From positions 13,903-77,902 of the forward strand of contig WQVK01000004.1 of NCBI GenBank assembly GCA_009784025.1: a stretch of DNA of 64,000 nucleotides, in the 5' to 3' direction. The DNA comes from Defluviitaleaceae bacterium. GTDB taxonomy: Bacteria; Bacillota; Clostridia; Lachnospirales; WQUN01. Every line of letters starts with the position of its first letter. Positions within the stretch are counted from its first letter, which is position 1. The translations under genes and the position numbers were made by a program. Positions 17,175 to 63,321 of the stretch are shown here, piece by piece. Below the pieces are notes generated by a model. It ran no database searches. It saw nothing but the letters and a program-made list of their open reading frames with translations, and was not told the DNA's origin.

Positions 17175-17304
17175 CAAAAAGAAGCAAAAAAAATAGCATT
17201 GAAATTGTGAAAAATTCCAGTGCTATTTTTTTTCGTTTTTCAGATGAAAAAACGTGATGATTTGGGAGTTTTTGCTTTTTGAGATGCGAAAATTGCCCAA
17301 AATG

Positions 17305-17323
17305 TGGTACCGTATGGTACCAT
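17305..17323. repeat. Family-D GGTACC double palindrome (TGGTACCGTATGGTACCAT)
   Basis: Hairpin followed by TTTTT, about 50 nt downstream of the rng stop. Confidence 0.6.
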
Positions 17324-27159: not shown

Positions 27160-27179
27160 ATGGTACCATACGGTACCAT
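27160..27179. repeat. Family-D palindrome ATGGTACCATACGGTACCAT
   Basis: Perfect 8-bp stem with a 4-nt loop, flanked by AAAATT and TTTTCGG. It sits in the divergent region upstream of dnaG. Confidence 0.6.
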
Positions 27180-47350: not shown

Positions 47351-49180
47351 TTAGCCTAGCGGAACAAGCATCAAGTTCATCATATTATCCTGCTCTGCTG
47401 CCAGGTAACGCACTTGCGTGGTGTCTACAAAACCTGGGATGCGTGCCACCACGGTTCTTGTACCTGCTTGGACTTGAACCGTTACCACAGATACTCCAAC
47501 AAACTCGCCGTCTACGTAGATGCGGGCATTTTCTGGCTGGGTAAATACAGTTAAATAAGCCAGAGGAACATCTGCCTCTAGGTTGATTGTATGGGCGGTG
47601 GTTGGCTGTGTTATTGTGAGAGTTTGCTCGTGGGTGATAAAGCCTGGGGCTTCTGCACGGATGGTGTTTTCGCCGAATTCTACTTGTATAGGTTCGTTAA
47701 AGTCCACGGCTTCGCCGTTTATTGTAACGGTGGCGTTGGCTGGGGTTACGGCCATGTTTAGTATGGCAATGCGTAGCTCTATTTCCGCCTCGCTAAGGTC
47801 TAGTACATAGGTTTCGCCCTGGGCAATGTTTACTATATGGGTAAATGTCTCGATATTATCGCCGCTTATTATTATGGTATGGCTGCCTTCTGGCATGGGG
47901 AATGGCTCTAGTAGCTCGCTAAAGCTGGTGTAAGAGCGGTTGCCCACGTAGATGCGCGGGTTGGTTATGCCTTCAGTGGCTACAAACTGCATAAGCCCGT
48001 GGGATAGCTCTATCTGCACGAACCATATATCTGTGTTCAACACATTCAGCGTAATAGTGTCCATGGGAGTGATGTTGGTCATTGCGCCGGTTTGCCCGTC
48101 TTGGCGCAGCACCAGGGTTAGAGCATCAAAATTGAGCACCTCGTTGCCCACTGTTGCGGTGCGCGCTACGGGGTCTACATCTACGTTGGTGCGGGCGCGT
48201 AGCTCACGCGCGGTGGTGCTTTCTTGCATTCTTTCTATTTCGTTGTTGTTTTCATCGTATCTTATCCGCACTATTTGTCCTGTCCTTACTTGGCTAAAGG
48301 GTAGGGGCTGGCCGGCGCGGGTCACAATTTCTGCATCTTCTGGTAGAGTGAATGTCCGGTTTCGTGGCGTTTCAGATAAATCTAGCACAGTGATGCCTCG
48401 TGGGTCTGTTGAGGTTGTGCTTAGCACCATGGCGTCTATCGTATTGATAACTGGGGGAACCCATACGCCATGGGGGGCATCGTTGTTGTTGTCGTTGTTA
48501 TTGTTGCTGGGTACATTTGGTGTGCCCGGTGCGCCTTGCGCACCCTGTTGGCCTTGTTGCCCCTGTTGGCCTTGGCCGGGGCTGCTTGGGCCTTGGATAT
48601 TGTCAAAAATATTGGTGTCGCTGTCTATAAATTGTCTTGCCAAAAAAATGCCGCCAATACCAACGCCTGCAACAACAATAAGCAATATAATCAAATAAAA
48701 CAGCTTGATAACATTATTAAGGTCCAATGGCTGTTTTTCTTTTACCCTTCGTGGTGGGTAGCTGCGCTGATGCCTTGGCCTGGCCGGAGGCTGACTACGG
48801 CGAGGGTCGCGGGCGGGTTCTCTGCGCTGTGGGGTTCTGTCGGCTGCTCTTTCCCGGTAGTTTTGGGTAGGGCGAGCCTCCCTTTCCCGGTAGCTTTGGG
48901 CTGGGCGGGTTTGGGCTTCACGCTGGGGTTGCCTTTGGTATACATCTGGCCTTCTGCCGGTGTATTGTTCTATGGCGTCTGGTTCATCTTGCTCTTCTGC
49001 TTCGTTGTAATAATCATCGTAATCTGCATCATAAAACTCGCCTTCATCTTGTTCGGGCGTTTGGTCGTATTCATCGTAATCTTCTTCGTCGTAGTATTCT
49101 TCGTTTGTGGGTTCGCTGTAATCGCGGTGGCGTCCAGAGCCTTTGCCGTATCGGTTATCCCTATCGCCGGGCATGGGCAT
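47351..49180 (-). CDS. Membrane-anchored PEGA-domain protein with disordered acidic/basic N-terminus
   Basis: 609 aa with one TM helix and a Gln/Gly low-complexity tract. The C-terminal PEGA-like repeats are ARIYVDGEFVGVS and ATVTINGEAV. Confidence 0.7.
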   Translation of the reverse strand: MPMPGDRDNRYGKGSGRHRDYSEPTNEEYYDEEDYDEYDQTPEQDEGEFYDADYDDYYNEAEEQDEPDAIEQYTGRRPDVYQRQPQREAQTRPAQSYREREARPTQNYRERAADRTPQRREPARDPRRSQPPARPRHQRSYPPRRVKEKQPLDLNNVIKLFYLIILLIVVAGVGIGGIFLARQFIDSDTNIFDNIQGPSSPGQGQQGQQGQQGAQGAPGTPNVPSNNNNDNNNDAPHGVWVPPVINTIDAMVLSTTSTDPRGITVLDLSETPRNRTFTLPEDAEIVTRAGQPLPFSQVRTGQIVRIRYDENNNEIERMQESTTARELRARTNVDVDPVARTATVGNEVLNFDALTLVLRQDGQTGAMTNITPMDTITLNVLNTDIWFVQIELSHGLMQFVATEGITNPRIYVGNRSYTSFSELLEPFPMPEGSHTIIISGDNIETFTHIVNIAQGETYVLDLSEAEIELRIAILNMAVTPANATVTINGEAVDFNEPIQVEFGENTIRAEAPGFITHEQTLTITQPTTAHTINLEADVPLAYLTVFTQPENARIYVDGEFVGVSVVTVQVQAGTRTVVARIPGFVDTTQVRYLAAEQDNMMNLMLVPLG

Positions 49181-50729: not shown

Positions 50730-50740
50730 CCATAGGATAA

Positions 50741-50777
50741 AAATTCAGTTGGTCGGAAAATCCGACCAACTGAATTT
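50741..50777 (+). terminator. Family-A hairpin AAATTCAGTTGGTCGG-AAAAT-CCGACCAACTGAATTT acting as the asnS terminator
   Basis: Lies 12 nt after the stop. The stem is followed by a T-run. Confidence 0.75.
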
Positions 50778-51918: not shown

Positions 51919-52614
51919 ATGATTAAATTAAAGAACCTAGAAAAACGCTTCGGGGAGCAAACCGTGCTTTCCGATGTATCGTTTGAAGTAGCCAGCCAAG
52001 AGATTTTTGCCCTGCTTGGGCCATCCGGCGCAGGCAAAACCACCATAATAAATATCCTAACAAAGCAGATAGCCCAAGATTCTGGTGAGGCGATTGTAGA
52101 TGCAACACCCCAAGAAGTAGGGCTGATGTTTGACGTGGGCGGTGTGTACCCGCATCTTAATTGCATAGAAAACCTAAGCTTATACGCCAAAATATACGAC
52201 CTGCCAAAAACTCGCGTGATGGAAACCCTACAAAGCGTAGGCCTAGAAGAATCTGCAAAAAAAACCGCCAGCACACTATCCAGAGGCATGCAGCAGCGCC
52301 TATCCCTGGCCCGCGCAATCCTGTACAAGCCAAAACTGCTAATACTGGACGAACCAACCAGCGCCCTAGACCCAGGCACAGCCCGCGGTATATGTAAACT
52401 GCTGCAAAAACTAAGTGACGAAGGCACAACCATTTTCTTAACCACCCACAACATGGACGAGGCCCTAAAGCTATGCGACCGTGTAGCCCTGCTAAACGGC
52501 GGCAAAATAGTAGCCCAGGGCGCACCAGAGGATCTATGTACCGAACATAATTCAATGCGAACCGTTCCAGATCTTGAAGCGGTATTCTTGAAGCTTACGG
52601 GGGTGGAACTATGA
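51919..52614 (+). CDS. ABC transporter ATP-binding protein
   Basis: Walker A is GPSGAGKTT, the signature is LSRGMQQRL and Walker B is LLILDEPT. Confidence 0.9.
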   Translation: MIKLKNLEKRFGEQTVLSDVSFEVASQEIFALLGPSGAGKTTIINILTKQIAQDSGEAIVDATPQEVGLMFDVGGVYPHLNCIENLSLYAKIYDLPKTRVMETLQSVGLEESAKKTASTLSRGMQQRLSLARAILYKPKLLILDEPTSALDPGTARGICKLLQKLSDEGTTIFLTTHNMDEALKLCDRVALLNGGKIVAQGAPEDLCTEHNSMRTVPDLEAVFLKLTGVEL

Positions 52615-53354
52615 AAAATATAAAAGCGATATTTTACAAGCAGTTTATAAGCAACCTGCGCGCCCCGGTGTTACTGTTTTACGGGGGATTGTTTTTAGTA
52701 TTTATGCTGATATTTTCATTTTTAGCAACGGATCATTCATGTGAAACAGGTGCATGTGTTCCGGAATATATTTGTCAGTATTGTGAAGAATCAAGATTTA
52801 GCCTGCCGGATATATCTATGGCCGGTATGTATATGGTAATGTTTGTGGGCATGGGTATTGTTGCATCTACATCTGCCCTTGTTGGCGAAGATAAAACCAC
52901 AAAGAACCTCAGGTTTATGAGCATGGCAGGGGTAACCCCTTGGCAGTATTTGATAGGAACATTTGCTGCAATGATGTTGTTCTCCACTGGCGTGATTCTC
53001 ATATACACAATCGCAGGCGGGTATTTTGGCTTGGATATGCTTGTTGTTGGGGGCGTTGCAACATTGGGCGCCATGGTGTCTGTGCTTTTTGGCGTAACTA
53101 TGGGGCTATCGAAATATCCTGTGGTTACTATGCCATTAGCCATGCTTTTGGGCATGGGGCCAATGTTGGCAGATGTAAATGAAAATGTTGCCGAAATTTT
53201 AAGCTTCACCTTCACCCAGCAAATACGCATAGCCATAGGCGAACTTGGCGAAGGCATAACAGGCAACCTTATTGTAATCGGCATAAACGCTGCAGTAGTC
53301 ATGGCTCTCTTCATCTTCCTAAACAGAAAAGGCAAACTTGTGGACGACGATTAA
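52611..53354 (+). CDS. ABC-2-type permease with Cys-rich first external loop
   Basis: 247 aa with about 6 TM helices and a 4-nt overlap with the ATPase. The loop is DHSCETGACVPEYICQYCEES. Confidence 0.75.
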   Translation: MKNIKAIFYKQFISNLRAPVLLFYGGLFLVFMLIFSFLATDHSCETGACVPEYICQYCEESRFSLPDISMAGMYMVMFVGMGIVASTSALVGEDKTTKNLRFMSMAGVTPWQYLIGTFAAMMLFSTGVILIYTIAGGYFGLDMLVVGGVATLGAMVSVLFGVTMGLSKYPVVTMPLAMLLGMGPMLADVNENVAEILSFTFTQQIRIAIGELGEGITGNLIVIGINAAVVMALFIFLNRKGKLVDDD

Positions 53355-53368
53355 ACAGGGGTGATTCA

Positions 53369-53920
53369 TTGCAATCTATAACAAACCTTACATTGCAGCA
53401 AAGCGGTAATAAAATACGCCTCATTTTCAACTGGCCAGCGGGTGTTACCCAGGTTCACATCGCTACAGCCAATGATTTCACCCAGGCCAAGCTTTTTACA
53501 CTACAAGAATACAAAATGTTCGGGGGGGCTGTGCTAGACAGCCCCCCGGGCACTACCAATTATTATATTTTCCCATCTTGTCACGATGCAGGAAGCTACC
53601 GCCCCACCGGCCAGGCCGCTCATGTCCAGCATATAAACCAAAGCATAATCCGTTTTACCCTAGAAGAAAAAATAGACCAATATAAGCAGCATAAGCTGAC
53701 CATCCACCCAGAGGGTTATATCCCCGCCGCCACAGTTTTTTACGTAAAAAATAATCACCCGCCTGCCAGCATAACAGACGGCATAAAATACCCCCTAGAG
53801 GCCATTCGCCAGCCCACCACCCGCATCATCCGTACAAATCTAGACGAATACATAAGATTATTCCTGGGGGATGGCGAAAACCTATACAAACTGGAAGGAC
53901 AACAAAATGGGACTTTTTAA
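53369..53920 (+). CDS. Hypothetical beta-rich protein, first gene of the GTPase module
   Basis: 183 aa. The TTG start has GGGGTG 6 nt upstream and lies 14 nt after the permease stop. I recognise no motif. Confidence 0.55.
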   Translation: MQSITNLTLQQSGNKIRLIFNWPAGVTQVHIATANDFTQAKLFTLQEYKMFGGAVLDSPPGTTNYYIFPSCHDAGSYRPTGQAAHVQHINQSIIRFTLEEKIDQYKQHKLTIHPEGYIPAATVFYVKNNHPPASITDGIKYPLEAIRQPTTRIIRTNLDEYIRLFLGDGENLYKLEGQQNGTF

Positions 53921-55148
53921 ACGCAAAAAGGCAGAAATAGAAAAGCAGCGGGCAGACAAAACCCACGAAATAGTATGCCTATACTGCTTCCGCAATTTCA
54001 CTCACGACAGGGTGCTTTTTCGCGCCTTCGAGGCCATAGATGCAGAAGGCTACCGGGCAGATTATGACCATGTGTTGGATGATTACCGCGCTCGCTTTCA
54101 TATGGACACCGCAGGTATACTGCCACCATTCCTAGACCCAGATAGCTTCCCAGAAGCCGCTAAGGGTTACCACCGTGGCGTGCTTTCCACGCTAAAGGAT
54201 GATTACAGCAACATCACCACCCGCCGTATATGCCCCTTCTGCCATAATGATATCCAGCAAAGCGCAGGTTATGCCCCTAGCACAATAATATCTGTGGTGG
54301 GCGGCACGCAGGCGGGTAAGTCTGTATACTTGACGGCCCTGGTGCATACATTAAAAACCATCACGCCGCGCAATTTCCCTATATTTTGCACCCCAATAAG
54401 CAACGAAATGGGTAAAAAGTTTAAGCTGGAATATGAAGGCCCACTTATAAATGACGGAATTTTGTTGGATTCTACCCAAAAGGAGAAACAGCAAGAGCCA
54501 TTTATATTTACATTCTCTTTCGCAGACGACAGGAAGCCGGAGATTAGCATTGCTTTCTTTGATATGGCTGGCGAGGGCATGGTTGACCCTGCGTATGTAG
54601 ACATTTATGCGGCAAATATCCGCAATTCTTCGGGGATTCTCTTTCTTGTAGACCCTACGCAGTTTAGCTCCATAGGGGGCAAGATTCTGCTGAAAAACGG
54701 CCTCAAGGATGAAGGATTCTACGACGAACCGGCAGATGTGCTAAGCGGGCTGGTGGAGGATTATATCTATAAGCAGGGTGGCGGGGTTTCTCAGATACCC
54801 ACGGCAGTGGTTATAACCAAGTCGGATTTGCTGGGGGCGCTGCGGCATGATGGCGAGTATATTTCCCCAAACAGCCCCATATTTGAGCATTTTAACCACC
54901 AGGAAAGCTTTAACTTATCAGCCTTTGACGATATTGATATAGATGTGGACGATTTTATATCTGCCGCAGACCCAAACTTCCGCAACGCGCTAAAACGCCG
55001 TTTTGCAAGGCTTGGTTTTTTTGCGGTGTCTGCACTAGGGTCTAAGCCAGAGGGTAGCCGAGTGGCGTCTTTTGCGCCATTGCGGGTTGACGAGCCGTTT
55101 CTCTGGCTACTGTACCAGCTGGGGTATATAGATGGGCATGAAGATTGA
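53907..55148 (+). CDS. Zn-ribbon-containing P-loop GTPase (TRAFAC-like)
   Basis: The start is MGLFKRKK (GGAAGGA upstream). The split ribbon is CLYC...CPFC. The GTPase motifs are G1 GGTQAGKS, G3 FFDMAGEG, G4 ITKSD and a possible G5 SALG. Confidence 0.75.
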   Translation: MGLFKRKKAEIEKQRADKTHEIVCLYCFRNFTHDRVLFRAFEAIDAEGYRADYDHVLDDYRARFHMDTAGILPPFLDPDSFPEAAKGYHRGVLSTLKDDYSNITTRRICPFCHNDIQQSAGYAPSTIISVVGGTQAGKSVYLTALVHTLKTITPRNFPIFCTPISNEMGKKFKLEYEGPLINDGILLDSTQKEKQQEPFIFTFSFADDRKPEISIAFFDMAGEGMVDPAYVDIYAANIRNSSGILFLVDPTQFSSIGGKILLKNGLKDEGFYDEPADVLSGLVEDYIYKQGGGVSQIPTAVVITKSDLLGALRHDGEYISPNSPIFEHFNHQESFNLSAFDDIDIDVDDFISAADPNFRNALKRRFARLGFFAVSALGSKPEGSRVASFAPLRVDEPFLWLLYQLGYIDGHED

Positions 55149-56343
55149 GCAACATATATACACGAGAGAACGCCGGGGGCTGTTTCGGCAAAATGAAGGC
55201 TACGACACAGTGGCCGCGTCTGCGGGGCTGGAGCTTGATTTTATCAAGAGGAATGTGCATCCGTATTGCATGTACCCAACAGCCCCAGCGGCTGCGCACC
55301 CCCCGGCTGTTACCGTAGTAAATTACCCCTGTGGCAGGATGCTTATTGGCCAAGCCGTTTACCGGGAGAAGGATTTCACTGGCCTGCGGGCAGCGTTTTT
55401 TGTACATAATTATATTTTGCCGCCTGAGGTGGCGACGAAAGTTTTGGGGAATATGGCAGAGGTTTTAGCCAGGCTGGAGTTTTTGACTGAATATGATATT
55501 GCGAAGGGCACAAGAATGGACTCGCTAGAGAGTTTGCCCCAGCATGGCGGGAAGATTACGCCGTATTATCCTGGGAATTTTGAGGAAATTTGGAGGGCTG
55601 TGTGCAGCGGAGGGAAGGTTTATGTAGCTACAGATAACCCTGTGGGGTTGCTGGTGGCGGTTTATCGGCATTTGCCAGTGGTGATGGCGCATAAATTGGG
55701 TGTTTGCACCCATACTGTTGAAATGGTGAACAAGAAGGGGATTGGGCTGGTTTTTTTGGCAGAGAGTGCAGAGGGGGAAGATGTGATAAGGGCATTGCCT
55801 TCGCTTGGTATCCTTGCAGATGTGGTGATGGAATATGATGTGCCTGCCATTGCTGAAAATACCCTTGCGTGTCGCTGTTGCGATATTCAGGCCGCAATGG
55901 CGGTGCAAAAATGCATATTCCGCGAGAATAATGTCCACCCCGCAGAAAAACTCCGAAACCTAAGCCATGGCAATTTTTTTCAAGAAATCAGTTTCTGGCA
56001 GGCGCGATTCCCAGAGCTTGACCGTTGCCATCGCTTTGCCCAGGCCAAGGCGCAATGGGTGGATAATATGCTAGACGGCCTATCTGCTACCCAGTTAGCT
56101 ACAATCCCGCAAAGTTTTATTAAGCAGGGCAAAACCCAGCGAAACCCGGAAATATTCGTAATGCTTGGTATTTTGAAAGCCGTTGCAGCCTCTCGCCACA
56201 TGCCAGACTTGCGATATTTGCTGGGAAGTTATATTATTAGCCCAGAGGTAAAACACAGGACTTTGTCAAATATTAAACGCATAAACGAGTACCGAGCCGC
56301 GCAAATGGCCGAAAGGATAAACCATGACCATAATCACAAATAG
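55132..56343 (+). CDS. GAP1-like (GTPase-associated protein) candidate, function unknown
   Basis: The N-terminus IEQHIYTRERRGLFRQNEGYDTVAASAGL resembles the recalled GAP1 N-terminal signature (HYTS..G...GFQ..A.S.G). A 17-nt overlap links it to the GTPase gene. This was not verified by a search. Confidence 0.5.
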   Translation: MGMKIEQHIYTRERRGLFRQNEGYDTVAASAGLELDFIKRNVHPYCMYPTAPAAAHPPAVTVVNYPCGRMLIGQAVYREKDFTGLRAAFFVHNYILPPEVATKVLGNMAEVLARLEFLTEYDIAKGTRMDSLESLPQHGGKITPYYPGNFEEIWRAVCSGGKVYVATDNPVGLLVAVYRHLPVVMAHKLGVCTHTVEMVNKKGIGLVFLAESAEGEDVIRALPSLGILADVVMEYDVPAIAENTLACRCCDIQAAMAVQKCIFRENNVHPAEKLRNLSHGNFFQEISFWQARFPELDRCHRFAQAKAQWVDNMLDGLSATQLATIPQSFIKQGKTQRNPEIFVMLGILKAVAASRHMPDLRYLLGSYIISPEVKHRTLSNIKRINEYRAAQMAERINHDHNHK

Positions 56344-57199
56344 TTTCGATAGGGCAGGGGAGCTGTATGCCGAACTGTTCAGCGAGTTTTTGCATATAAA
56401 TTTTATTGTACGCACGCTGCTTGTCGTTTTTATATTATGGCTGGTGGTTTTTGTGTTGGGGCAGGTTTTTAAATATGTATTTGCGCCGCTGGTTATTATT
56501 TTGTACACAAAGCTGGCGCTGCGGGCGTGGAATTATCTTTTTGTGGAAACATTGCAAGAATGGTTGTACATTCGCTATCATTCTAAAGACAAGCCCAGCC
56601 CGCTGTACTTGCGGCTTTGCGATAAAATCAAGGTAAACCGCCAAAAAATGGCCTACACCACTTATAGCGGTATCTTGCACCGCGGCAAAGTGCGCCGTGC
56701 CAGCCGTAGCCTTATTTTAATCTGCGGCATAACAGGAACACTTTGGGCTGGTGGCTTTGGCATGCACCAAGAATACGCTGCCCCAGCCATGGTGGCAGAT
56801 GTGGCAGAGCCAACATCCGCGCCAGAACCTACCCACATTTATGAAGAAACCTTCCCCACAGTAGTGGAAACTCCACCGCCTGCGCAGATATATCAATCTG
56901 GCTTCCTCAGCCCGGTTAACTGGGACACCGGCAGCCAAATTGTGCTGGCCTTAACAGAGCAAGGCCGCCAAGGGGCACGCCTGCGCAACGGCCCGGGCAT
57001 TGTGGATAATACGATAATTGAAATCCTGTGGGATGACGAACTGCTGCTGTACATGAACAGGTATGCAGCAGATGGGCAAGTACAGGGGTTATATTGGCTA
57101 TATGTACAAACCACCGGCGGTGAAGCCGGGTATATAAGCAGCCAAATAGTGGAGATTGCCGTGCTGGACGGGCTAGTGGCAGAAGAATATGAAGATTAG
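56324..57199 (+). CDS. Membrane protein with C-terminal SH3b-like domain
   Basis: 291 aa with 2-3 TM helices and a Pro-rich linker. The C-terminal segment GARLRNGPGIVDNTIIEILW...YWLYVQTTGGEAGYISSQIV is typical of bacterial SH3. Confidence 0.6.
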   Translation: MTIITNSFDRAGELYAELFSEFLHINFIVRTLLVVFILWLVVFVLGQVFKYVFAPLVIILYTKLALRAWNYLFVETLQEWLYIRYHSKDKPSPLYLRLCDKIKVNRQKMAYTTYSGILHRGKVRRASRSLILICGITGTLWAGGFGMHQEYAAPAMVADVAEPTSAPEPTHIYEETFPTVVETPPPAQIYQSGFLSPVNWDTGSQIVLALTEQGRQGARLRNGPGIVDNTIIEILWDDELLLYMNRYAADGQVQGLYWLYVQTTGGEAGYISSQIVEIAVLDGLVAEEYED

Positions 57200-57325: not shown

Positions 57326-57403
57326 CTCCTCTATATGAAAACAAAGGCTGCAAAGTCACTTTTTGGTAGAAATATAACAAAAATTCTATATTTTGAATAA
57401 AAA

Positions 57404-57455
57404 ATGGTACCATACGGTACCATAAATTAGAGAAAATGGTACCGTATGGTACCAT
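57404..57455. repeat. Two tandem family-D GGTACC palindromes
   Basis: ATGGTACCATACGGTACCAT lies at 57404-57423 and ATGGTACCGTATGGTACCAT at 57436-57455. Both are flanked by A- and T-runs. Confidence 0.65.
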
Positions 57456-57648
57456 TTTTTTGGCAAAAAACCACTTTTTCATGGAAAATGTAAACTGAAA
57501 ACCCCGCAATTTCGCCATTTCTTATAAAAAATTAAACTTTTTTATAGAACTTTTTTCTAAAAAGTTTTTTGCGCTGTCGAAGGCAGAGCATCCGACGGTT
57601 TTAAACAAAATATTTAATATGCCAACCACGAAATAAATCGTGTAAAAG

Positions 57649-57677: not shown

Positions 57678-57780
57678 ACCGACGCTTTATATGCGTTTTT
57701 TATTGGAATATAAAATTCGTGGCTTCAAGTTTTAACAATTGAATAATATTGTCTTAGAATTAAGGGGAGGTTTCTTTACA

Positions 57781-60700
57781 ATGGGAGAAATCATTTTTAA
57801 CGGCAAGAGCTTTAAGGAAGATGCTATTGCGGTGGTTGGTATTGGCTGCCGTTTTCCAGGAAATGTTAACGATGCAGACCAATTTTGGGATTTGCTAAAA
57901 AACGGTAAGGATGCAATTACAGAAGTGCCAAAAGACCGCTGGGATAGGCATACCTACTACCATAAAGACCGCAGCTTTAGTGGTAAAACTGTAAGCCAAA
58001 GGGGAGGGTTTATCGACAATTTTGATAAGTTTGACCCGCAATTTTTTGGCATTACGCCCAGAGAAGCCGCATTTATAGACCCTCAGCAAAGGGTTTTGAT
58101 GGAAGTAAGCTGGGAAGCAATGGAAGACGCCGGTATAGTAACAAAAAACTATGTAGGTTCAGATACTGGTGTTTATATAGGCGCATTTACTCTTGACTAT
58201 CAGCATGTTCAATTTAACTTGGACCATCTTGATGAAATAGATTTACATTCGGCCACAGGCAGCATGATGACACTTGTTGCCAACAGGCTTTCTTATATTT
58301 ACGACTTTACAGGCCCAAGCATAGCTATAGACACGGCATGCTCTGGGTCTCTTGTTGCTATCCACACCGCATGCCAAAGTATTAGAAATAAAGAATGCAC
58401 AATGGCCATAGCCGGCGGCGTTTTATTAAACTTTGCACCCCAGTATACAATAGCAGAATCTCGCGGCGGCTTCTTGTCTCCCGATGGAACATGTAAAACC
58501 TTAGATGAATCCGCCAATGGTTATGTAAGGGGAGAGGGCGCCGCGGTTGTTATACTAAAGCCACTAAAAGACGCAATTGCAGACAATGACCATATCTATT
58601 CACTTATTCTAGGCAGCGCAGTTAACCAAGACGGCCAGACAAACGGCATTACTGTACCCAATGGAGAATCACAAAAACAAGCAACCATAAAAGCCTGCGC
58701 CCAAGCCGGTATCCAGCCAAAAGAAGTGCAATATATAGAAATGCACGGCACAGGAACGCCAGTAGGCGACCCAATAGAGGCAAATGCCCTTGGTGAAACA
58801 TACGGCCTAGGCCGCGACAAAAACAAACCATGTATCATTGCCTCGGTTAAAACAAATATAGGCCATACAGAAAGTGTGGCTGGTGTTGCGGGCATAATCA
58901 AGACTTCTTTGGTGCTAAAAAATAAAAAAATCCCGCCCCATTTGCATTTAAAAAATATCAACCCAAAAATAAATTTAGAAGAGCTAAACCTAAAAGTGCC
59001 GCAAGAGCTTATGGATTACCCAAAGCATGAGGGCCTTGCAATGGCAGCAGTAAACAGCTTTGGTTTTGGCGGCACAAATGCTCATGCGGTTTTGTCTGAA
59101 GCGCCAGAGCCGCAAGTGTTTTCTTCACAAAAAAATGATGTAACGCGCATTTTCCCCATTTCTGCAAGGTCAGAAGCGGGGCTAAAAGCAATGGCAGAAA
59201 AATACCATGCGTTTTTGGCACAAAAGGATGTAAAGAATTTATATGATTTAGGCTACAGCATGTCCCAAAGGCGCGACCAGCACCCATACCGCCTAGGGGT
59301 TGTGGCCAAAAATATCACCCAGCTAAAAGAAAACCTGGCAGATTATATCCAAGGAAACCCTACACTAGGCGTTGCAGAAGGCAGAAACAAGGACAACAGC
59401 AACGATCTAGTTTTTGTTTTCACCGGCATGGGGCCGCAATGGTGGAAAATGGGCCGCGAGTTAATGGCTGCAGAACCAATTTTCATGGATGCCATCAAAG
59501 AATGCGATAAAGAATTCTTTAAATATGCAAAATGGTCCCTGCTTGAAGCAATGAATGCAGATGAAGAAGCCTCTGAAATGAGCCAAACAAAACTTGCCCA
59601 GCCAGCAAACTTTGCCCTTCAATACGGTTTAATTAAGCTGTGGGAATCTAAGGGGATTAAGGCAGACGCTATCATAGGCCACAGCGCAGGGGAAGTAGCG
59701 GCATTTTACAATGCTGGCGTTTTTAGCTTTGAAGACGCCATTAAAGTGATCTACAACCGAAGCAGCCTGCAACAAAGGTTAACAGGCCGTGGCAAAATGA
59801 TGGCCATAAGCCTGTCCAAAGAAGAATCAGAGCAGCTTATCGCCAACTACGAAGGCCTAGATATCGTTGCCATCAACAGCTTTTCTGGCGTAACAATAGC
59901 CGGCGAAGAAGATGAGTTGGCAAAAGTTGGAGAACATTTAACAGAACAAGGTATCTTCAACAAGCTGCTAGATGTGACAGTACCATTCCACAGCCGCTAC
60001 ATGGAAGAAATCAAAGATGATTTTATGGCAGGTATTGCAGATATAACATTCAACCAGCCCACAACCAAGCTTTATTCAACCACAATTGGCAAATGCGTTA
60101 CTGAACCAGTGGACGGCAGCTACCTATGGAACAATGTCCGCCATGCCGTTTATTTTGCAGATGCAATAACAACAATCCTAGATGACGGTTACACAAAATT
60201 CCTAGAAATAGGCCCTCACCCGGCATTAACATTCTATTTAAAAGAAATGTGCGCCGAAAGGAAAATAAACGGAACATTTATCAATTCCCTAAACCGCAAG
60301 CAAGGCGAGCAATTAACATTCTACAATGCGCTGGCATGTTTATACACAGAAGATATCCTAAACTTAACAGCCATGTACCCAGAAACGGGCAATTATATTA
60401 AATTGCCTTATTATGCATGGCAGCGCGATGTTTACTGGATGGAATCATCATCCACCGCAATAAGGCGCTTAGGCAAATACGACCGTATTCTACTTGGCAA
60501 AAAACTGCTAACAGCCCAGCCAACATGGGAAGTAGAGCTGAAAAAAGAGCTTGTGCCATTTGTAGAAGAGCATAGCATCGGCGGAACGCCATTATTCCCG
60601 GCGGCAGGCTATATCGAAATGGCTCTGCAAATGGCCAACCAGCATTACGGAAAAGGTTTCTTCACCTTAAACAATGTAGAATTCCTCAAAGCTGTTTTTA

Positions 60701-63321
60701 TCAAGCCAAACAAGATAACAAAGCTACAAATCACCCTAGACGAACAAAATGCCACATTTGCTATTTACAATGTTTCCAATGGAGATAACCCAGAAGTAGT
60801 CTCTAGGGGAGAATTCAAACAAATGCAGGATTTTGGTACCCAGAATCGCATAAATTTAGAATCATTAAAAGAAAAAACAACAGGGGATGCCACCAGATTC
60901 GACGGCGTGACCATGTACGAAAAATTTGTAAGCGCGGGCTTTAGCTATACGAATACATTTGCAGCAATAGAAGATATTTGGATTTGCGAAGACGAAGCAA
61001 TTTCTAAGCTTGCATTGCCACAAATAGACCAATTAAACAGCTATGAAATGTACCCAGGCATTTTAGATGCCTGCTTCCAAGGCACAATCGCGTTGGAATT
61101 TGCAGCCACAGCAGCCGCCGTCGCAGATAGCGAAGTCGGGTTTGATATCAGGCTACCAGTAGGCGTGGATGAATTTTTGCTGCACAACCCACTAACGCAA
61201 GAAATGTGGGTACATTGCAAAAGGGTAGAAAGAACAGATACCTACACAACAAATGATATATACCTATACAACCAAGACGGCGGGCTTATCGCAATAGTCA
61301 AGGCCTTAAAAGTACAAACTTTGGAAAACACTAAGCAACTAATGCCCTTAAAAGTGTTGGATTCCTGGCTATACAACTTGGAATGGCCAGAAATCGACAA
61401 TATAGAGCCGGTAGAAAAAGAAACAGAACCAGGCTGCTGGCTTATCCTAGGGGATGAAGGCGGCGTAGCCGCGCAATATGTAAATGTTTTAAACAAGCAG
61501 GGCGAGTCAAGCTTCTACGTGTCATTAGGCAATGACTTTTCAATTGATAACAAGCAACAAAAAGCAACAATAAGGCATAACAGCGACGAAGACATGGTAA
61601 CGCTTTATAACACCATAAAAGAAAATACCCAAGTCAAAGGAGTTGTCCATTTCTGGAATCTTGATTTGGCCAAAAACAGCGAAATCGATGCCCAAAATGT
61701 TTTGCAATCGGGAGATATTGGCGTTTATTCGGTTATGAGCTTGCTAAAAGCCGTAGCCGCCAGCGAAGATATCCTTAAGCTATGGATTATCACAAAAGGG
61801 GCACAGGCAATTTTGCCCGGCGAAGAGCCTGAAATCATGCAAAATGCCATCTGGGGGCCAGCAAGGTTAATTGGGAACCAAGAATACATCAGCCTATGGG
61901 GCGGCATTGTTGACCTAGACCCACAAGAAGTAACGCAAAGCCTAAATCAACTGGCTATGCAAACCCTATACAGCGACGAAGAAGACCAAATCGCATACCG
62001 CTCTGGCCACCGATACGGCGCGAGGCTTAAAAATACTGCAAACCTAACCAAACCATTACCCGTCCACATGAACGCAGAAGGCAGCTATATGGTAACCGGT
62101 GCTTTTGGCGCGCTGGGCAAATTAGTGTCACATTGGCTGGTAGAAAAAGGTGCGAAAAAACTAATTCTGCTAGGCAGAGTCAGCCTTCCAGATCGTTCAG
62201 AATGGCAAAGCGCAGGCCTTGACGATAAAGTTAAAGAGCGAATCGAATTTGTTCAAAGCCTTGAAAATAAAGGCGCAACAGTAACAGTAGACGCATTAGA
62301 CTTTGCAGATACTAACGCCGTTAAGCAATACTTTGCAGAAAATAGCGAAAAGATAAAACAAGTAAGAGGAGTTATCAGCTCACTTGGGATTGTAAAAGAC
62401 ATGTATATTTCGCAAATGCCCAAGGATGTATTCGATGAAGTTTACGAGACTAAAGTAATGTCAAACTGGTTGCTGCATCAATATTTTGGAGAGCAACCCT
62501 TAGACTTTTTTGTGGTATTCTCCTCTGTTGGGGCTTTGATTACATCTGCAGGGCAAGCAAATTATTCCGCCGCCAACGCGTTTTTGGACGGCCTGATAAC
62601 CTATAGAAGGAAAAAAGGTTTGGCAGGTTTAAGTATTGGTTGGGGCCCTTGGGCAGCTGGCATGATCTTGGAATTAAACATGATGAACTTCTTTAGAAAC
62701 AGAGGCCTAGAGCCAATAACCAAAGAACGAGGGATGCAAGTATTAGAGCGGCTAATCTACCAGAACATCCCCTACACATCTGTTTTGGAAGCTAATTGGC
62801 AAGTGTTCAAAGAAGCCAGCGCCAAAAGCAGAACACCATACCTAAACGAGTGGCTAGAAAAAGGCCTAGCAGATGGCGAAACAGAGCTAAAATCAGATGC
62901 CGAAATTCTTAAAGAATTCCACGAGGCATATATAGCAGCTGATAAAGAGCTAAGAATCCAATTGTTAGAAGAGCAAATGATAACCCTTGTAGCTAGGGTT
63001 CTGCATATGAAAACAGAGGATATCGAGCTAGAAAAAACCCTAACAGAACTAGGGCTTGATTCTATGGTTGCAACTGAGCTTAGAAACAAAATTGAACTAA
63101 GATTAGGCGCCAACCTAACGGTTATAGACCTGCTAAACAGCCATAGCCTGAAGCAGCAAATTGAAAAAATCGCAGACCAATTAGATACTGTGCTAGAGCT
63201 AAACACCATAGAAGATTTGATTGAAGACACCTCGGACGAGGAACTAGATATGCTGCTCGCGCAATTAGAGAGCATATCTGAAGAAGAAATGGCGACGATG
63301 TTGGAAGGCAATGACGCTTAA
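57781..63321 (+). CDS. Type I polyketide synthase module KS-AT-DH-KR-ACP
   Basis: The start is MGEIIF (AAGGGGAGG upstream). The KS has DTACSGSL (Cys codon 58339-58341), HGTGT and GHTESVAG. The AT has GHSAGE and VPFHS. The DH has HSIGGTPLFP. The KR has TGAFGALG and YSAANAF. The ACP has LGLDSM (Ser codon 63061-63063). The C-terminal tail is acidic. Confidence 0.95.
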   Translation: MGEIIFNGKSFKEDAIAVVGIGCRFPGNVNDADQFWDLLKNGKDAITEVPKDRWDRHTYYHKDRSFSGKTVSQRGGFIDNFDKFDPQFFGITPREAAFIDPQQRVLMEVSWEAMEDAGIVTKNYVGSDTGVYIGAFTLDYQHVQFNLDHLDEIDLHSATGSMMTLVANRLSYIYDFTGPSIAIDTACSGSLVAIHTACQSIRNKECTMAIAGGVLLNFAPQYTIAESRGGFLSPDGTCKTLDESANGYVRGEGAAVVILKPLKDAIADNDHIYSLILGSAVNQDGQTNGITVPNGESQKQATIKACAQAGIQPKEVQYIEMHGTGTPVGDPIEANALGETYGLGRDKNKPCIIASVKTNIGHTESVAGVAGIIKTSLVLKNKKIPPHLHLKNINPKINLEELNLKVPQELMDYPKHEGLAMAAVNSFGFGGTNAHAVLSEAPEPQVFSSQKNDVTRIFPISARSEAGLKAMAEKYHAFLAQKDVKNLYDLGYSMSQRRDQHPYRLGVVAKNITQLKENLADYIQGNPTLGVAEGRNKDNSNDLVFVFTGMGPQWWKMGRELMAAEPIFMDAIKECDKEFFKYAKWSLLEAMNADEEASEMSQTKLAQPANFALQYGLIKLWESKGIKADAIIGHSAGEVAAFYNAGVFSFEDAIKVIYNRSSLQQRLTGRGKMMAISLSKEESEQLIANYEGLDIVAINSFSGVTIAGEEDELAKVGEHLTEQGIFNKLLDVTVPFHSRYMEEIKDDFMAGIADITFNQPTTKLYSTTIGKCVTEPVDGSYLWNNVRHAVYFADAITTILDDGYTKFLEIGPHPALTFYLKEMCAERKINGTFINSLNRKQGEQLTFYNALACLYTEDILNLTAMYPETGNYIKLPYYAWQRDVYWMESSSTAIRRLGKYDRILLGKKLLTAQPTWEVELKKELVPFVEEHSIGGTPLFPAAGYIEMALQMANQHYGKGFFTLNNVEFLKAVFIKPNKITKLQITLDEQNATFAIYNVSNGDNPEVVSRGEFKQMQDFGTQNRINLESLKEKTTGDATRFDGVTMYEKFVSAGFSYTNTFAAIEDIWICEDEAISKLALPQIDQLNSYEMYPGILDACFQGTIALEFAATAAAVADSEVGFDIRLPVGVDEFLLHNPLTQEMWVHCKRVERTDTYTTNDIYLYNQDGGLIAIVKALKVQTLENTKQLMPLKVLDSWLYNLEWPEIDNIEPVEKETEPGCWLILGDEGGVAAQYVNVLNKQGESSFYVSLGNDFSIDNKQQKATIRHNSDEDMVTLYNTIKENTQVKGVVHFWNLDLAKNSEIDAQNVLQSGDIGVYSVMSLLKAVAASEDILKLWIITKGAQAILPGEEPEIMQNAIWGPARLIGNQEYISLWGGIVDLDPQEVTQSLNQLAMQTLYSDEEDQIAYRSGHRYGARLKNTANLTKPLPVHMNAEGSYMVTGAFGALGKLVSHWLVEKGAKKLILLGRVSLPDRSEWQSAGLDDKVKERIEFVQSLENKGATVTVDALDFADTNAVKQYFAENSEKIKQVRGVISSLGIVKDMYISQMPKDVFDEVYETKVMSNWLLHQYFGEQPLDFFVVFSSVGALITSAGQANYSAANAFLDGLITYRRKKGLAGLSIGWGPWAAGMILELNMMNFFRNRGLEPITKERGMQVLERLIYQNIPYTSVLEANWQVFKEASAKSRTPYLNEWLEKGLADGETELKSDAEILKEFHEAYIAADKELRIQLLEEQMITLVARVLHMKTEDIELEKTLTELGLDSMVATELRNKIELRLGANLTVIDLLNSHSLKQQIEKIADQLDTVLELNTIEDLIEDTSDEELDMLLAQLESISEEEMATMLEGNDA

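Follow-up and report, generated by a model that had tools for sequence, protein, structure and literature searches.

A Minimal, Termite-Gut-Specific Form of a Computationally Predicted Bacterial GTPase Switch System in Defluviitaleaceae

Results

Organization of the Locus

The window (the whole stretch of DNA analysed, 64,000 nucleotides) carries four same-strand ORFs, orf1 to orf4, that overlap consecutively by 14, 17 and 20 nt (Table 1). A purine-rich Shine-Dalgarno-like stretch lies ahead of every start. Translation of orf2 could equally begin at an earlier ATG (53871), which would give a 425-aa form; homologues of orf2 favour the 413-aa start. An earlier note on this DNA had described this arrangement, including the 14-nt gap between the stop of an ABC-2 permease gene and the start of orf1, and all of it is present. 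The motifs that it quoted were also all found, namely C24LYC27, C109PFC112, GGTQAGKS, DMAGE, TKSD, SALG and the GAP1 N-terminus IEQHIYTRERRGLF. Because the GTPase motifs are kept in at least 95% of 57 homologues, we consider the genes of this region to be real.

Table 1. Coordinates of the genes and features at the locus; residue numbers refer to the encoded proteins.
Feature	Position	Strand	Details
ABC ATPase	51919-52614	+	ABC_tran and DrrA-like matches
ABC-2 permease	52611-53354	+	weak ABC2_membrane_3 match
orf1	53369-53920	+	183 aa, TTG start
orf2	53907-55148	+	413 aa
orf2, split four-Cys Zn-binding region	53976-54242	+	C24xxC27 ... C109xxC112-H-N; four Cys in at least 95% of 57 homologues
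orf2, GTPase core motifs	54300-55040	+	read from sequence
orf2, P-loop GGTQAGKS	54300-54323	+	residues 132-139; read from sequence
orf2, Walker B/G3 DMAGE with the family's Glu	54561-54575	+	residues 219-223; read from sequence
orf2, G4 TKSD	54816-54827	+	residues 304-307; read from sequence
orf2, G5 SALG	55029-55040	+	residues 375-378; read from sequence
orf3	55132-56343	+	403 aa
orf3, GAP1-N2 domain	55144-55530	+	invariant Y10-T11-R12 and D81-F-T-G-x-R86-x-x-F-F-x-H92-N-Y
orf4	56324-57199	+	291 aa
orf4, membrane features			hydrophobic hairpin 31-66; conserved basic cytoplasmic loop 67-127; TM 128-147; acidic Pro-rich linker; SH3b ~206-280
orf4, SH3b-like domain, predicted outside the membrane	56939-57163	+	family SH3_3 matches, phmmer
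REP-like hairpins, a tandem pair of 20-nt palindromes	57391-57468	.	within the 540 nt that precede the PKS gene; right boundary

The left flank of the module consists of whiA, murB, hprK, uvrC, asnS and asnA, and the accessory status proposed earlier is not supported. On the right, the adjoining secondary-metabolite gene is real and encodes a polyketide synthase (PKS) with the domains KS-AT-DH-KR-ACP. The repeats that were said to bound the module on this side are there. Nothing was found in favour of their being MITEs, and the palindromes look like REP-like hairpins, with further copies at 17304 and 27160 (4 in the window vs 0 expected by chance).

The GTPase and Its GAP1 Partner

The product of orf2 is a Zn-ribbon TRAFAC GTPase of the DO-GTPase2 type, predicted to be the nucleotide switch of the system. 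It matched Pfam DO-GTPase2 with 32.5 bits (cut-off 27) over profile positions 64-202 only, and profile searches gave no match to a housekeeping GTPase family, in line with the earlier description as a Zn-ribbon TRAFAC-type GTPase. It shares 69-76% identity with the copies of other Defluviitaleaceae and 44% with that of Paenibacillus, and the conservation pattern among the 57 homologues is G..Q.GKSV, FFD.AGE, TKsD and FAVSaLG.

As judged from its sequence and model, orf3 encodes a soluble GAP1 (GTPase-associated protein 1), the dedicated partner of this GTPase, made up of an N2, an M and a helical C domain. The GAP1 identity proposed earlier was borne out by a match of residues 5-133 to Pfam GAP1-N2 (97.8 bits, E 7e-28, cut-off 24). 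The match to GAP1-M was only 13.3 bits in orf3; PF20013 and PF20014 were both found in 13 of 13 homologues. The invariant residues of the N2 domain were read from 59 sequences, Paenibacillus and Cellulosilyticum included. No TM segment was found. The AlphaFold2 model had an overall pLDDT of 67.7; residues 270-400, which form the helical domain at the C-terminus, reached 80-93.

The FNIII Protein

No match to orf1 was found in Pfam, NCBIfam or PADLOC. Its AlphaFold2 model was all-beta with a pLDDT of 92.1, and in a Foldseek search against the PDB every top match was a tandem FN3 pair (E down to 6.5e-5, probability 1.00). No TM segment was found, and we take orf1 to be a cytoplasmic protein with two FNIII-like beta-sandwich domains. 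The earlier reading of orf1 as beta-rich with a TTG start was thus correct; the absence of a recognisable motif held for the sequence, but not for the structure. In 51 of 58 loci a member of the orf1 family is the gene immediately before the GTPase gene, and the family also precedes 19 of the 20 linked metagenome cassettes. An FNIII component is expected in GAP1-N2 systems (Kaur et al. 2020; PMC7159879), and by its modelled fold orf1 is predicted to be this third component.

The Membrane Protein

By its hydropathy orf4 encodes a multi-pass membrane protein, and its SH3b-like domain is predicted to lie outside. The loop contains 13 K/R and 4 D/E residues and the part beyond the final TM segment 4 K/R and 22 D/E, from which we assigned the topology by the positive-inside rule. 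The family has no Pfam model and was found only in termite-gut metagenomes. Weak SH3_3 matches occurred in 6 of 7 family members, and the distant phmmer matches of orf4 were bona fide SH3_3-repeat proteins aligned over their SH3b domains. The SH3b identity, supported transitively in this way, agrees with the extracytoplasmic SH3b-like domain suggested earlier.

Conservation of the Cassette

The FNIII–GTPase–GAP1–orf4 cassette is repeated across many termite-gut Defluviitaleaceae contigs. Gene order is identical and starts overlap at loci L001, L003, L004, L015, L020, L060, L063, L081, L084, L088, L095 and L117. The neighbourhood survey showed the four genes to be co-conserved. Variants also exist: some loci are without orf4 or orf1, and there are orphan GAP1s and versions with tubulin and vWA genes. 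The starts of orf4 copies that follow GAP1 are usually overlapping or closely spaced. Stand-alone homologues, located apart from a GTPase or GAP1 gene, adjoin thioredoxin, spo0A, IMPDH or DegV genes. The linkage of orf4 to the GTPase and GAP1 is facultative, and because orf4 often stands alone and some loci are without orf4 or orf1, a four-protein complex is not obligatory.

The long GAP1s found in Paenibacillus, Cellulosilyticum and Bacillota MAGs have their own single TM segment and external tail, whereas the short Defluviitaleaceae GAP1s have no TM segment and orf4 comes next. Therefore, the portion in and beyond the membrane either belongs to GAP1 itself or comes from the gene beside it.

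Discussion

The four genes form a minimal GAP1-N2-type "double-GTPase" (DO-GTPase) system, a stripped-down, termite-gut-specific form of a computationally predicted bacterial GTPase "switch" system. The family is already described and modelled in Pfam; the GTPase and GAP1 pairing is described in PMC7159879, where Zn ribbons, an FNIII protein and TM/SH3b parts are mentioned as well. Our literature search found no experimental paper on the DO-GTPase/GAP1 families, which agrees with the earlier statement that no gene of the module has an experimentally defined role.

We favour the view that orf1 to orf4 make up a minimal envelope-tethered GTPase switch with an envelope-linked regulatory or organising role rather than a suicide-type anti-phage system, and give it a probability of roughly 0.45. 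The overlapping genes would be translated together and their products would form one complex, in which the soluble GTPase-GAP1-FNIII unit docks on orf4 at the membrane and the SH3b domain of orf4 may hold peptidoglycan. By binding and hydrolysing GTP, orf2 would switch this complex near the membrane between assembly states. GAP1 would regulate the GTP cycle of orf2, with the invariant R12 and R86 as candidate catalytic or contact residues, and the FNIII pair may be a ligand- or partner-binding adaptor. We prefer a regulatory switch because no effector or toxin domain was recognised in orf1 to orf4 (Pfam, NCBIfam and PADLOC searches), the setting is one of core genes, the GTPase evolves slowly and relatives join the FNIII, GTPase and GAP1 trio to tubulin-like and vWA proteins.

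The only published view reads DO-GTPase/GAP1 systems as biological-conflict systems, a role proposed for all of them (PMC7159879). Here, the fast FNIII and GAP1 proteins would sense a phage component, the GTPase would set the threshold and the output would be membrane damage or growth arrest, with orf4 at the membrane or a protein encoded elsewhere as the effector. We regard this as possible but less likely than the envelope-tethered switch. The rates of divergence agree with it in part. The GTPase evolves slowly, like its housekeeping neighbours (identity 96 vs 99% for prfA, 91 vs 82% for GCS2 and 88 vs 82% for a VCA0040-like gene), whereas GAP1 and FNIII are faster (81 and 89% where prfA is 99%, 63-64% where GCS2 is 82%), a divergence compatible with an arms race or with relaxed constraint. 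The variable composition of the cassette in related genomes and its differing chromosomal positions among Defluviitaleaceae also suit a conflict system. However, no effector domain of a known kind was found, orf1 to orf4 had no PADLOC or PHROG match, and the neighbours, here and at other loci, are housekeeping rather than defence genes. A defence-island setting has no support. The search of phages and viral contigs gave no match, and the plasmid collection gave only three distant matches, on two Rhodococcus megaplasmids and an 11.85-Mb Nonomuraea record; mobility of the module has no support. In addition, the system is syntenic in ~40 Paenibacillus species, which looks like vertical inheritance, and orf4 genes stand alone in core contexts.

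Two further readings concern the limits of the module. It is unlikely that the GTPase, GAP1 and FNIII proteins are by themselves the system and orf4 an unrelated, lineage-specific SH3b membrane protein that is often found downstream. Among 57 assessable homologues 27 stand alone, and L007-L010 carry the GTPase and GAP1 without orf4. In contrast, 28 directly follow GAP1 and 2 more directly follow the GTPase (L064 and L099), a linkage far above expectation for a family of ~39 clusters among 1.84 billion representatives, and related GAP1s carry the fused TM segment and external tail at the equivalent position. Still less credible, and in our opinion very improbable, is a functional unit of six genes with the ABC-2 exporter, perhaps with the PKS, that regulates, for example, polyketide export or self-protection. 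As far as transcription is concerned, the earlier idea of a six-gene operon is plausible: no terminator was found in the 14-nt gap, and the ABC-2 pair is probably co-transcribed with orf1 to orf4 here. The nearby PKS gene and the ABC ATPase genes near other loci (upstream at L059, ~500 nt downstream in Paenibacillus) could also be taken in its favour, but the similarity of these ATPases is of a generic kind (E 1e-15 to 1e-25). No permease homologue lies beside the cassette in 58 genome/ENA loci or in 32 GAP1-bearing metagenome loci, the nearest relatives (L063 and L071) have different neighbours, and at other loci prfA, opp, GCS2 and VCA0040-like genes take the upstream place. The ABC-2 pair is thus outside the conserved module.

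The closest known systems to the module are the GAP1-N2 DO-GTPase systems of the firmicute tubulin-vWA theme (Kaur, Burroughs, Iyer & Aravind 2020, eLife 9:e52696; PMC7159879), represented in this analysis by the Paenibacillus, Cellulosilyticum and Bacillota MAG loci L013-L058. Both share a homologous FNIII-like protein, a Zn-ribbon DO-GTPase2 (44% identity) and a GAP1 with N2 and M domains in the same order, and both have an attached membrane-plus-extracellular element. In contrast to these relatives, the window has no Tubulin_2 or vWA gene and a single GTPase instead of a paralogous pair; its GAP1 is soluble and has 403 rather than 844-1060 aa, and its membrane and outside part is the separate SH3b gene orf4. 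GAP1-N1-type systems also have a DO-GTPase and GAP1 core with GAP1 downstream of the GTPase, but they use GAP1-N1 and a helical GASH protein without FNIII, carry recognisable effectors (SLATT, peptidases, EAD-linked domains) and occur mostly in Proteobacteria and Bacteroidetes (PMC7159879). Of the two N-terminal domain types, the orf3 product matched N2 only, not GAP1-N1, in Pfam.

More distant parallels are found among other GTPase systems. The conservons of Streptomyces encode CvnA-D, that is, a membrane sensor, a Roadblock/LC7 protein, a DUF742 protein and a Ras-like GTPase, and have been proposed to work as G-protein switches at the membrane. They too are four-gene operons in which a small GTPase is joined by a membrane component and by partner proteins of its own; there is no homology, and Roadblock, DUF742, histidine-kinase-like and Ras-family Pfam matches are absent from orf1 to orf4. 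For the GAP1 model, which is of moderate quality with low confidence at residues 12-57, Foldseek found no significant structural neighbour; the sub-threshold matches were TagF (probability 0.66 over only 60 columns), folliculin, GATOR1 and DENND10, with a best E of 0.065. Together with the modelled order of secondary structure in the N domain (beta, alpha, three beta, two alpha), these matches hint at a longin-like module. By analogy only, the MglA/MglB-type and eukaryotic longin/DENN GTPase-regulator pairs resemble the module in that a GTPase is served by a dedicated non-GTPase regulator.

Gene Layout and Surroundings of the Cassette

The cassette comprises genes for an FNIII-like protein (orf1), a Zn-ribbon DO-GTPase2 (orf2), GAP1 (orf3), and a membrane protein with a predicted SH3b domain (orf4). 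The four ORFs, their successive overlaps of 14, 17, and 20 nt, and the 14-nt gap after the stop of the ABC-2 permease had been described in the earlier note, and all of them, as well as every motif quoted there, were found in the sequence. A purine-rich Shine-Dalgarno-like stretch is located upstream of every one of the four starts. The listed start of orf1 is supported because its homologue P0016 begins with MQTIKNLT, and the shorter form of orf2 is supported because its initial residues are conserved among homologues.

Features of the cassette and its surroundings
Feature	Position	Strand	Remarks
PEGA-domain protein	47351-49180	-	609 aa, divergent from asnS
Hairpin with T-run	50735-50775		directly after asnS
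ABC ATPase	51919-52614		ABC-2 pair
ABC-2 permease	52611-53354	+	ABC-2 pair
orf1 (FNIII-like)	53369-53920	+	183 aa, TTG start
orf2 (DO-GTPase2)	53907-55148	+	413 aa; alternative 425-aa form from 53871 also open
orf3 (GAP1)	55132-56343	+	403 aa
orf3, N domain	55132-55530	+	
orf4 (TM-SH3b)	56324-57199	+	291 aa
Palindrome ATGGTACCRTAYGGTACCAT, 20 nt	17304-17323, 27160-27179, 57404-57423, 57436-57455		intergenic; 4 copies, 0 expected by chance
Type I polyketide synthase module	57739-63321	+	KS-AT-DH-KR-ACP

Two of the four copies of the palindrome are arranged in tandem immediately to the right of the module. They had been described as MITE-like repeats, a nature that was not supported, and they look like REP-like hairpin elements. 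The claimed secondary-metabolite neighbour was confirmed as a polyketide synthase module 540 nt downstream of orf4, the true start of which is likely slightly downstream of the listed TTG. The left flank of the window contains whiA, murB, hprK, uvrC, asnS, and asnA. Because the flanking genes are housekeeping genes, we judged the proposed accessory status of the module to be too generous. The PEGA-domain protein begins with a long, charged region of low complexity and has a single TM segment and a C-terminal PEGA domain; PEGA is among the wall-binding domains listed for GAP1-N2 systems by Kaur et al. 2020 (PMC7159879).

The long perfect hairpin and T-run after asnS have the appearance of an intrinsic terminator, and no comparable signal was found between asnA and the ABC genes or the module. 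The Rfam scan of the whole window detected no structured RNA, T-box included. The signal of the promoter and terminator scan was no higher than background, and it did not set the operon boundaries reliably.

It had been proposed that the ABC-2 pair and the four ORFs form one six-gene operon. The pair is probably co-transcribed with the module in this genome because of the 14-nt gap and the lack of a terminator. No homologue of the ABC-2 permease was found in the 58 genome and ENA loci or in the 32 GAP1-bearing metagenome loci, so we rejected the pair as a component of the system and regarded its genes as bystanders outside the conserved unit. Behind the first TM segment of the permease lies an unusual stretch rich in Cys, HSCETGACVPEYICQYCEE.

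The DO-GTPase and GAP1

The DO-GTPases belong to the TRAFAC GTPases; their Walker B Glu is conserved, and they usually bear N-terminal Zn ribbons (PMC7159879). The orf2 protein matched Pfam PF19993 DO-GTPase2 with 32.5 bits (curated cut-off 27, E 9e-8), and this match spans only profile positions 64-202 of 226; the precomputed PF19993 matches of its homologues were weak or faint. Its motifs GGTQAGKS, FFDMAGE, TKSD, and SALG are of the TRAFAC type and include the Walker B glutamate (DxxGE). Of 57 GTPases encoded at related loci, at least 95% show each of the patterns G..Q.GKSV, FFD.AGE, TKsD, and FAVSaLG. The housekeeping GTPase families scored far under their cut-offs (MMR_HSR1 E 0.23, YcjX E 0.045), and the NCBIfam GTPase models gave zero matches. 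The TRAFAC-type call of the earlier note was upheld.

C24xxC27 and C109xxC112 are present in at least 95% of the 57 sequences and make up a single site of four Cys, the two halves of which are about 80 residues apart; this is one Zn site and not two ribbons. N2-type systems usually carry two Zn ribbons (PMC7159879). A second paralogous GTPase was absent from the window cassette and from all related loci, and it is not obligatory because only 38% of the described systems have one (PMC7159879).

The GAP1 identity proposed for orf3 was confirmed by the Pfam profile PF20013 GAP1-N2 (97.8 bits, E 7e-28, residues 5-133). The GAP1-M (PF20014) score was 13.3 bits (cut-off 24), and all 13 orf3 homologues (13/13) carry PF20014 and align across that region. 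No Pfam model matched for GAP1-C; a helical C-terminal domain is confidently predicted at residues 270-400 (pLDDT 80-93), and it is conserved among the short GAP1s of the Defluviitaleaceae type. In tblastn against the long GAP1s of the Paenibacillus, Cellulosilyticum, and Bacillota MAG type, the alignment ended at residue 209. At least 95% of 59 GAP1s carry Y10-T11-R12 and D81-F-T-G-x-R86-x-x-F-F-x-H-N-Y. We rejected Cys67 as a catalytic residue of GAP1-N2; it is invariant in the short GAP1s but not conserved in the Paenibacillus-type GAP1. The gene lies immediately downstream of the DO-GTPase gene in 55 of the 58 loci, and the same placement has been described for these systems (PMC7159879).

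PDB sequence searches with the GTPase and with GAP1 returned no relative of solved structure. The AlphaFold2 model of orf3 was moderate (pLDDT 67.7 overall), and Foldseek found no significant structural neighbour for it. The sub-threshold matches recurrently included TagF, folliculin, GATOR1, and DENND10, which are longin/DENN-type GTPase regulators, and the N domain arranges its secondary-structure elements in a longin-like order. As all of these matches were non-significant, the possible longin/DENN likeness of GAP1-N2 is a lead only.

The FNIII and Membrane Proteins

At the sequence level, orf1 had no match, FN3 included, in Pfam, NCBIfam, PADLOC, PHROGs, or the PDB, and a precomputed PF25835 tag on the orf1-family proteins P0033, P0034, and P0055 was not reproduced by hmmscan of the local Pfam copy. 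A total of 45 homologous sequences were gathered with the family profile. The AlphaFold2 model was all-beta with a pLDDT of 92.1, and its top PDB neighbours were all tandem FN3 pairs with a probability of 1.00, such as NCAM FN3 1-2 (E 6.5e-5), integrin beta4, and fibronectin. The TM-scores against FN3 pairs were low (0.3-0.44), and this would fit a different inter-domain angle in the model. Thus, the protein had rightly been said to lack a recognisable motif at the sequence level, but structure prediction revealed tandem FNIII domains. An FNIII-repeat protein belongs to GAP1-N2 systems (PMC7159879). Because the model matches tandem FN3 pairs and the protein has neither a TM segment nor a signal-like N-terminus, orf1 is the expected cytoplasmic FNIII component.

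The orf4 protein has a hydrophobic stretch at residues 31-66 and a third hydrophobic segment at 128-147, which enclose a conserved, strongly basic loop (67-127, 13 K/R vs. 4 D/E). After residue 147, an acidic Pro-rich linker and a beta-rich C-terminal domain follow (4 K/R vs. 22 D/E), and the C-terminus is predicted to lie outside the membrane because of the positive-inside rule. The window protein matched neither SH3_3 nor any other Pfam model at E<=1, and the orf4 profile found no SH3b match among PDB sequences. SH3_3 was matched weakly by six of the seven family members (best E 0.0018). Of 1.84 billion representative proteins searched exhaustively with phmmer, only 39 were relatives. The most distant were proteins with multiple SH3_3 domains, and the match covered their SH3b part (E ~1e-4); the matched parts are SH3_3 domains scoring 67-110 bits. 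These family-wide Pfam scans and transitive phmmer matches support the prediction, already made in the earlier note, of an SH3b-like domain. The family is tiny and lacks a Pfam model, and termite-gut samples were its only source.

Conservation of the Cassette

The GAP1 profile scan of one genome per species gave 53 loci. Full-length GAP1 relatives occurred only in termite-gut Defluviitaleaceae MAGs, and approximately 40 Paenibacillus species, Cellulosilyticum, and other Bacillota MAGs matched over the N and M domains only. On GAP1-bearing contigs, all four genes recurred in an unchanged order, and their starts overlapped or lay close together; the flanking genes varied (prmC-prfA, opp transporter, and others). 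In local HMM searches of 58 loci, the orf1 family was directly upstream of the GTPase in 51, and orf4 was restricted to Defluviitaleaceae. The Paenibacillus-type loci encode Tubulin_2 and vWA proteins upstream, and their GAP1s (844-1060 aa) each have one TM segment plus an external tail; no TM was seen in the short GAP1s of Defluviitaleaceae. The membrane and outside element is thus either fused to GAP1 or encoded by the gene that follows, and this speaks for joint action of orf4 and GAP1.

The metagenome scan with the orf4 profile, which qualifies this view, gave 80 loci from a small set of JGI metagenomes, the sample prefixes of which are those of the termite-gut MAG names. Among the 57 assessable full-length copies, 28 were directly after GAP1. 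Two were directly after the GTPase without GAP1 (loci L064, 4802-6867, and L099), a hint at possible direct contact between orf4 and the GTPase. The other 27 (L065, L068-L070, L077, L082, L090, L128, L133, and others) stood alone beside core genes such as thioredoxin, spo0A/S41 peptidase, IMPDH, DegV, and a Na/Pi transporter. Stand-alone and linked copies formed interleaved clades, with the window copy in a linked clade. As about half of the metagenome copies stand alone, orf4 was ruled out as an obligate GAP1 partner. The orf1 gene was present in 19 of the 20 linked cassettes with enough upstream sequence.

Reduced forms consisted of the GTPase and GAP1 only (loci L007 and L008) or of FNIII, GTPase, and GAP1 (L009 and L010). 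Therefore, the core is the GTPase plus GAP1, FNIII is a usual member, and orf4 is a frequent but facultative fourth. The four genes do travel together recurrently in Defluviitaleaceae, but not as an indivisible unit. Orphan GAP1 genes without an adjacent GTPase were found beside an MFS transporter or mnmG (L011, 5890-7086; L012, 5998-7143). In L007 (3771-4712) and L008 (3842-4768), a VCA0040/DUF368-type gene (undecaprenyl-phosphate translocase-like) is directly upstream of the GTPase; in these two loci without orf1 and orf4, a cell-envelope gene occupies the usual position of orf1.

Regulation or Conflict

Identity (%) between paired related loci
Pair	Neighbouring gene	GTPase	orf4	FNIII	GAP1
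L001 vs. L004	prfA 99	96	91	89	81
L009 vs. L010	GCS2 82	91		63	64
L007 vs. L008	VCA0040-like 82	88			63

These identities indicate that the GTPase is as constrained as the housekeeping genes, and that GAP1 and FNIII change faster. In this study, we tentatively favour an envelope-tethered GTPase switch with a regulatory or organising role, to which we give a probability of roughly 45%. The proteins of the cassette would form a complex, orf2 would hydrolyse GTP, docking may take place on the basic loop of orf4, and the membrane part of the cassette may bind peptidoglycan.

The published reading, in which such modules act as conflict systems, seems to us less likely and takes the next place. A slow GTPase with a fast GAP1 and FNIII fits its picture of a constant switch and a variable sensor (PMC7159879), and relaxed constraint fits the same rates. 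Against it, the PADLOC-DB v2 and PHROG searches gave no significant match for any component, the phage and viral-contig searches gave no match, and the cassette showed no detectable effector domain, whether nuclease, protease, pore-forming, or of another kind. The flanks at other loci are prfA, mnmG, cobU, GCS2, and sugar epimerase genes, and the Paenibacillus locus is syntenic over many species. The context gives no support for a defence island. An origin from mobile elements was rejected, as the plasmid collection added only three distant actinobacterial matches (24-25% identity; two Rhodococcus megaplasmids and an 11.85-Mb Nonomuraea record). Minor alternatives share the weight that these two readings leave.

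Going beyond the envelope-tethered switch, we speculated, with little confidence, that DO-GTPase/GAP1 is a conserved non-immune bacterial G-protein module, with GAP1-N2 as its longin/DENN-like regulator. In the minimal form, the SH3b anchor orf4 would connect cell-wall state to a GTP switch in the cytoplasm, and the Paenibacillus-type switch would control a membrane tubulin-like polymer. If true, the module would represent in prokaryotes what longin-regulated small-GTPase signalling is in eukaryotes, and its four genes would offer an entry point for studying it.

Comparison with Known Systems

The 2020 survey listed DO-GTPase/GAP1 systems for more than 1,100 organisms, of which 262 had N1 and 904 had N2 (PMC7159879). 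Literature searches brought up no experimental study of a DO-GTPase or GAP1 family member, in line with the earlier statement that no gene of this combination has a role defined by experiment. If its proteins can be expressed, the cassette would be a tractable set for the role of GAP1 (GAP, GEF, or effector), for the ligand of the FNIII pair, and for the choice between defence and envelope organisation. It is the smallest complete form among the loci studied here, with a GTPase, a short soluble GAP1, a two-domain FNIII protein, and a membrane anchor, and without tubulin, chaperone, kinase, or effector genes. Its interest lies mainly in its use as a minimal model of this unstudied class.

The cassette is a GAP1-N2-type DO-GTPase system by its defining features. 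It shares with such systems the GTPase profile and motifs, the Zn site, GAP1-N2, the order of GTPase then GAP1, the FNIII protein, and the membrane and predicted peptidoglycan-binding parts; TM and peptidoglycan-binding parts are often present in them (PMC7159879). Three themes have been described for GAP1-N2 systems, namely tubulin, HSP70/GrpE/DnaJ, and kinase/PP2C/vWA, and approximately 24% of N2 systems fall outside them (PMC7159879). None of the three was found in or beside the cassette, either in the window or in the Defluviitaleaceae loci. Tubulin_2 and vWA were seen only in the Paenibacillus/Cellulosilyticum-type relatives, and this is the firmicute tubulin theme of PMC7159879. In contrast to the described systems, the cassette has a single GTPase, a short soluble GAP1, and no accessory theme, and its predicted SH3b domain is encoded by a separate gene with TM segments instead of being fused to a second GTPase (PMC7159879). 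Systems of this kind had already been predicted computationally, and what is new is the different composition of the cassette.
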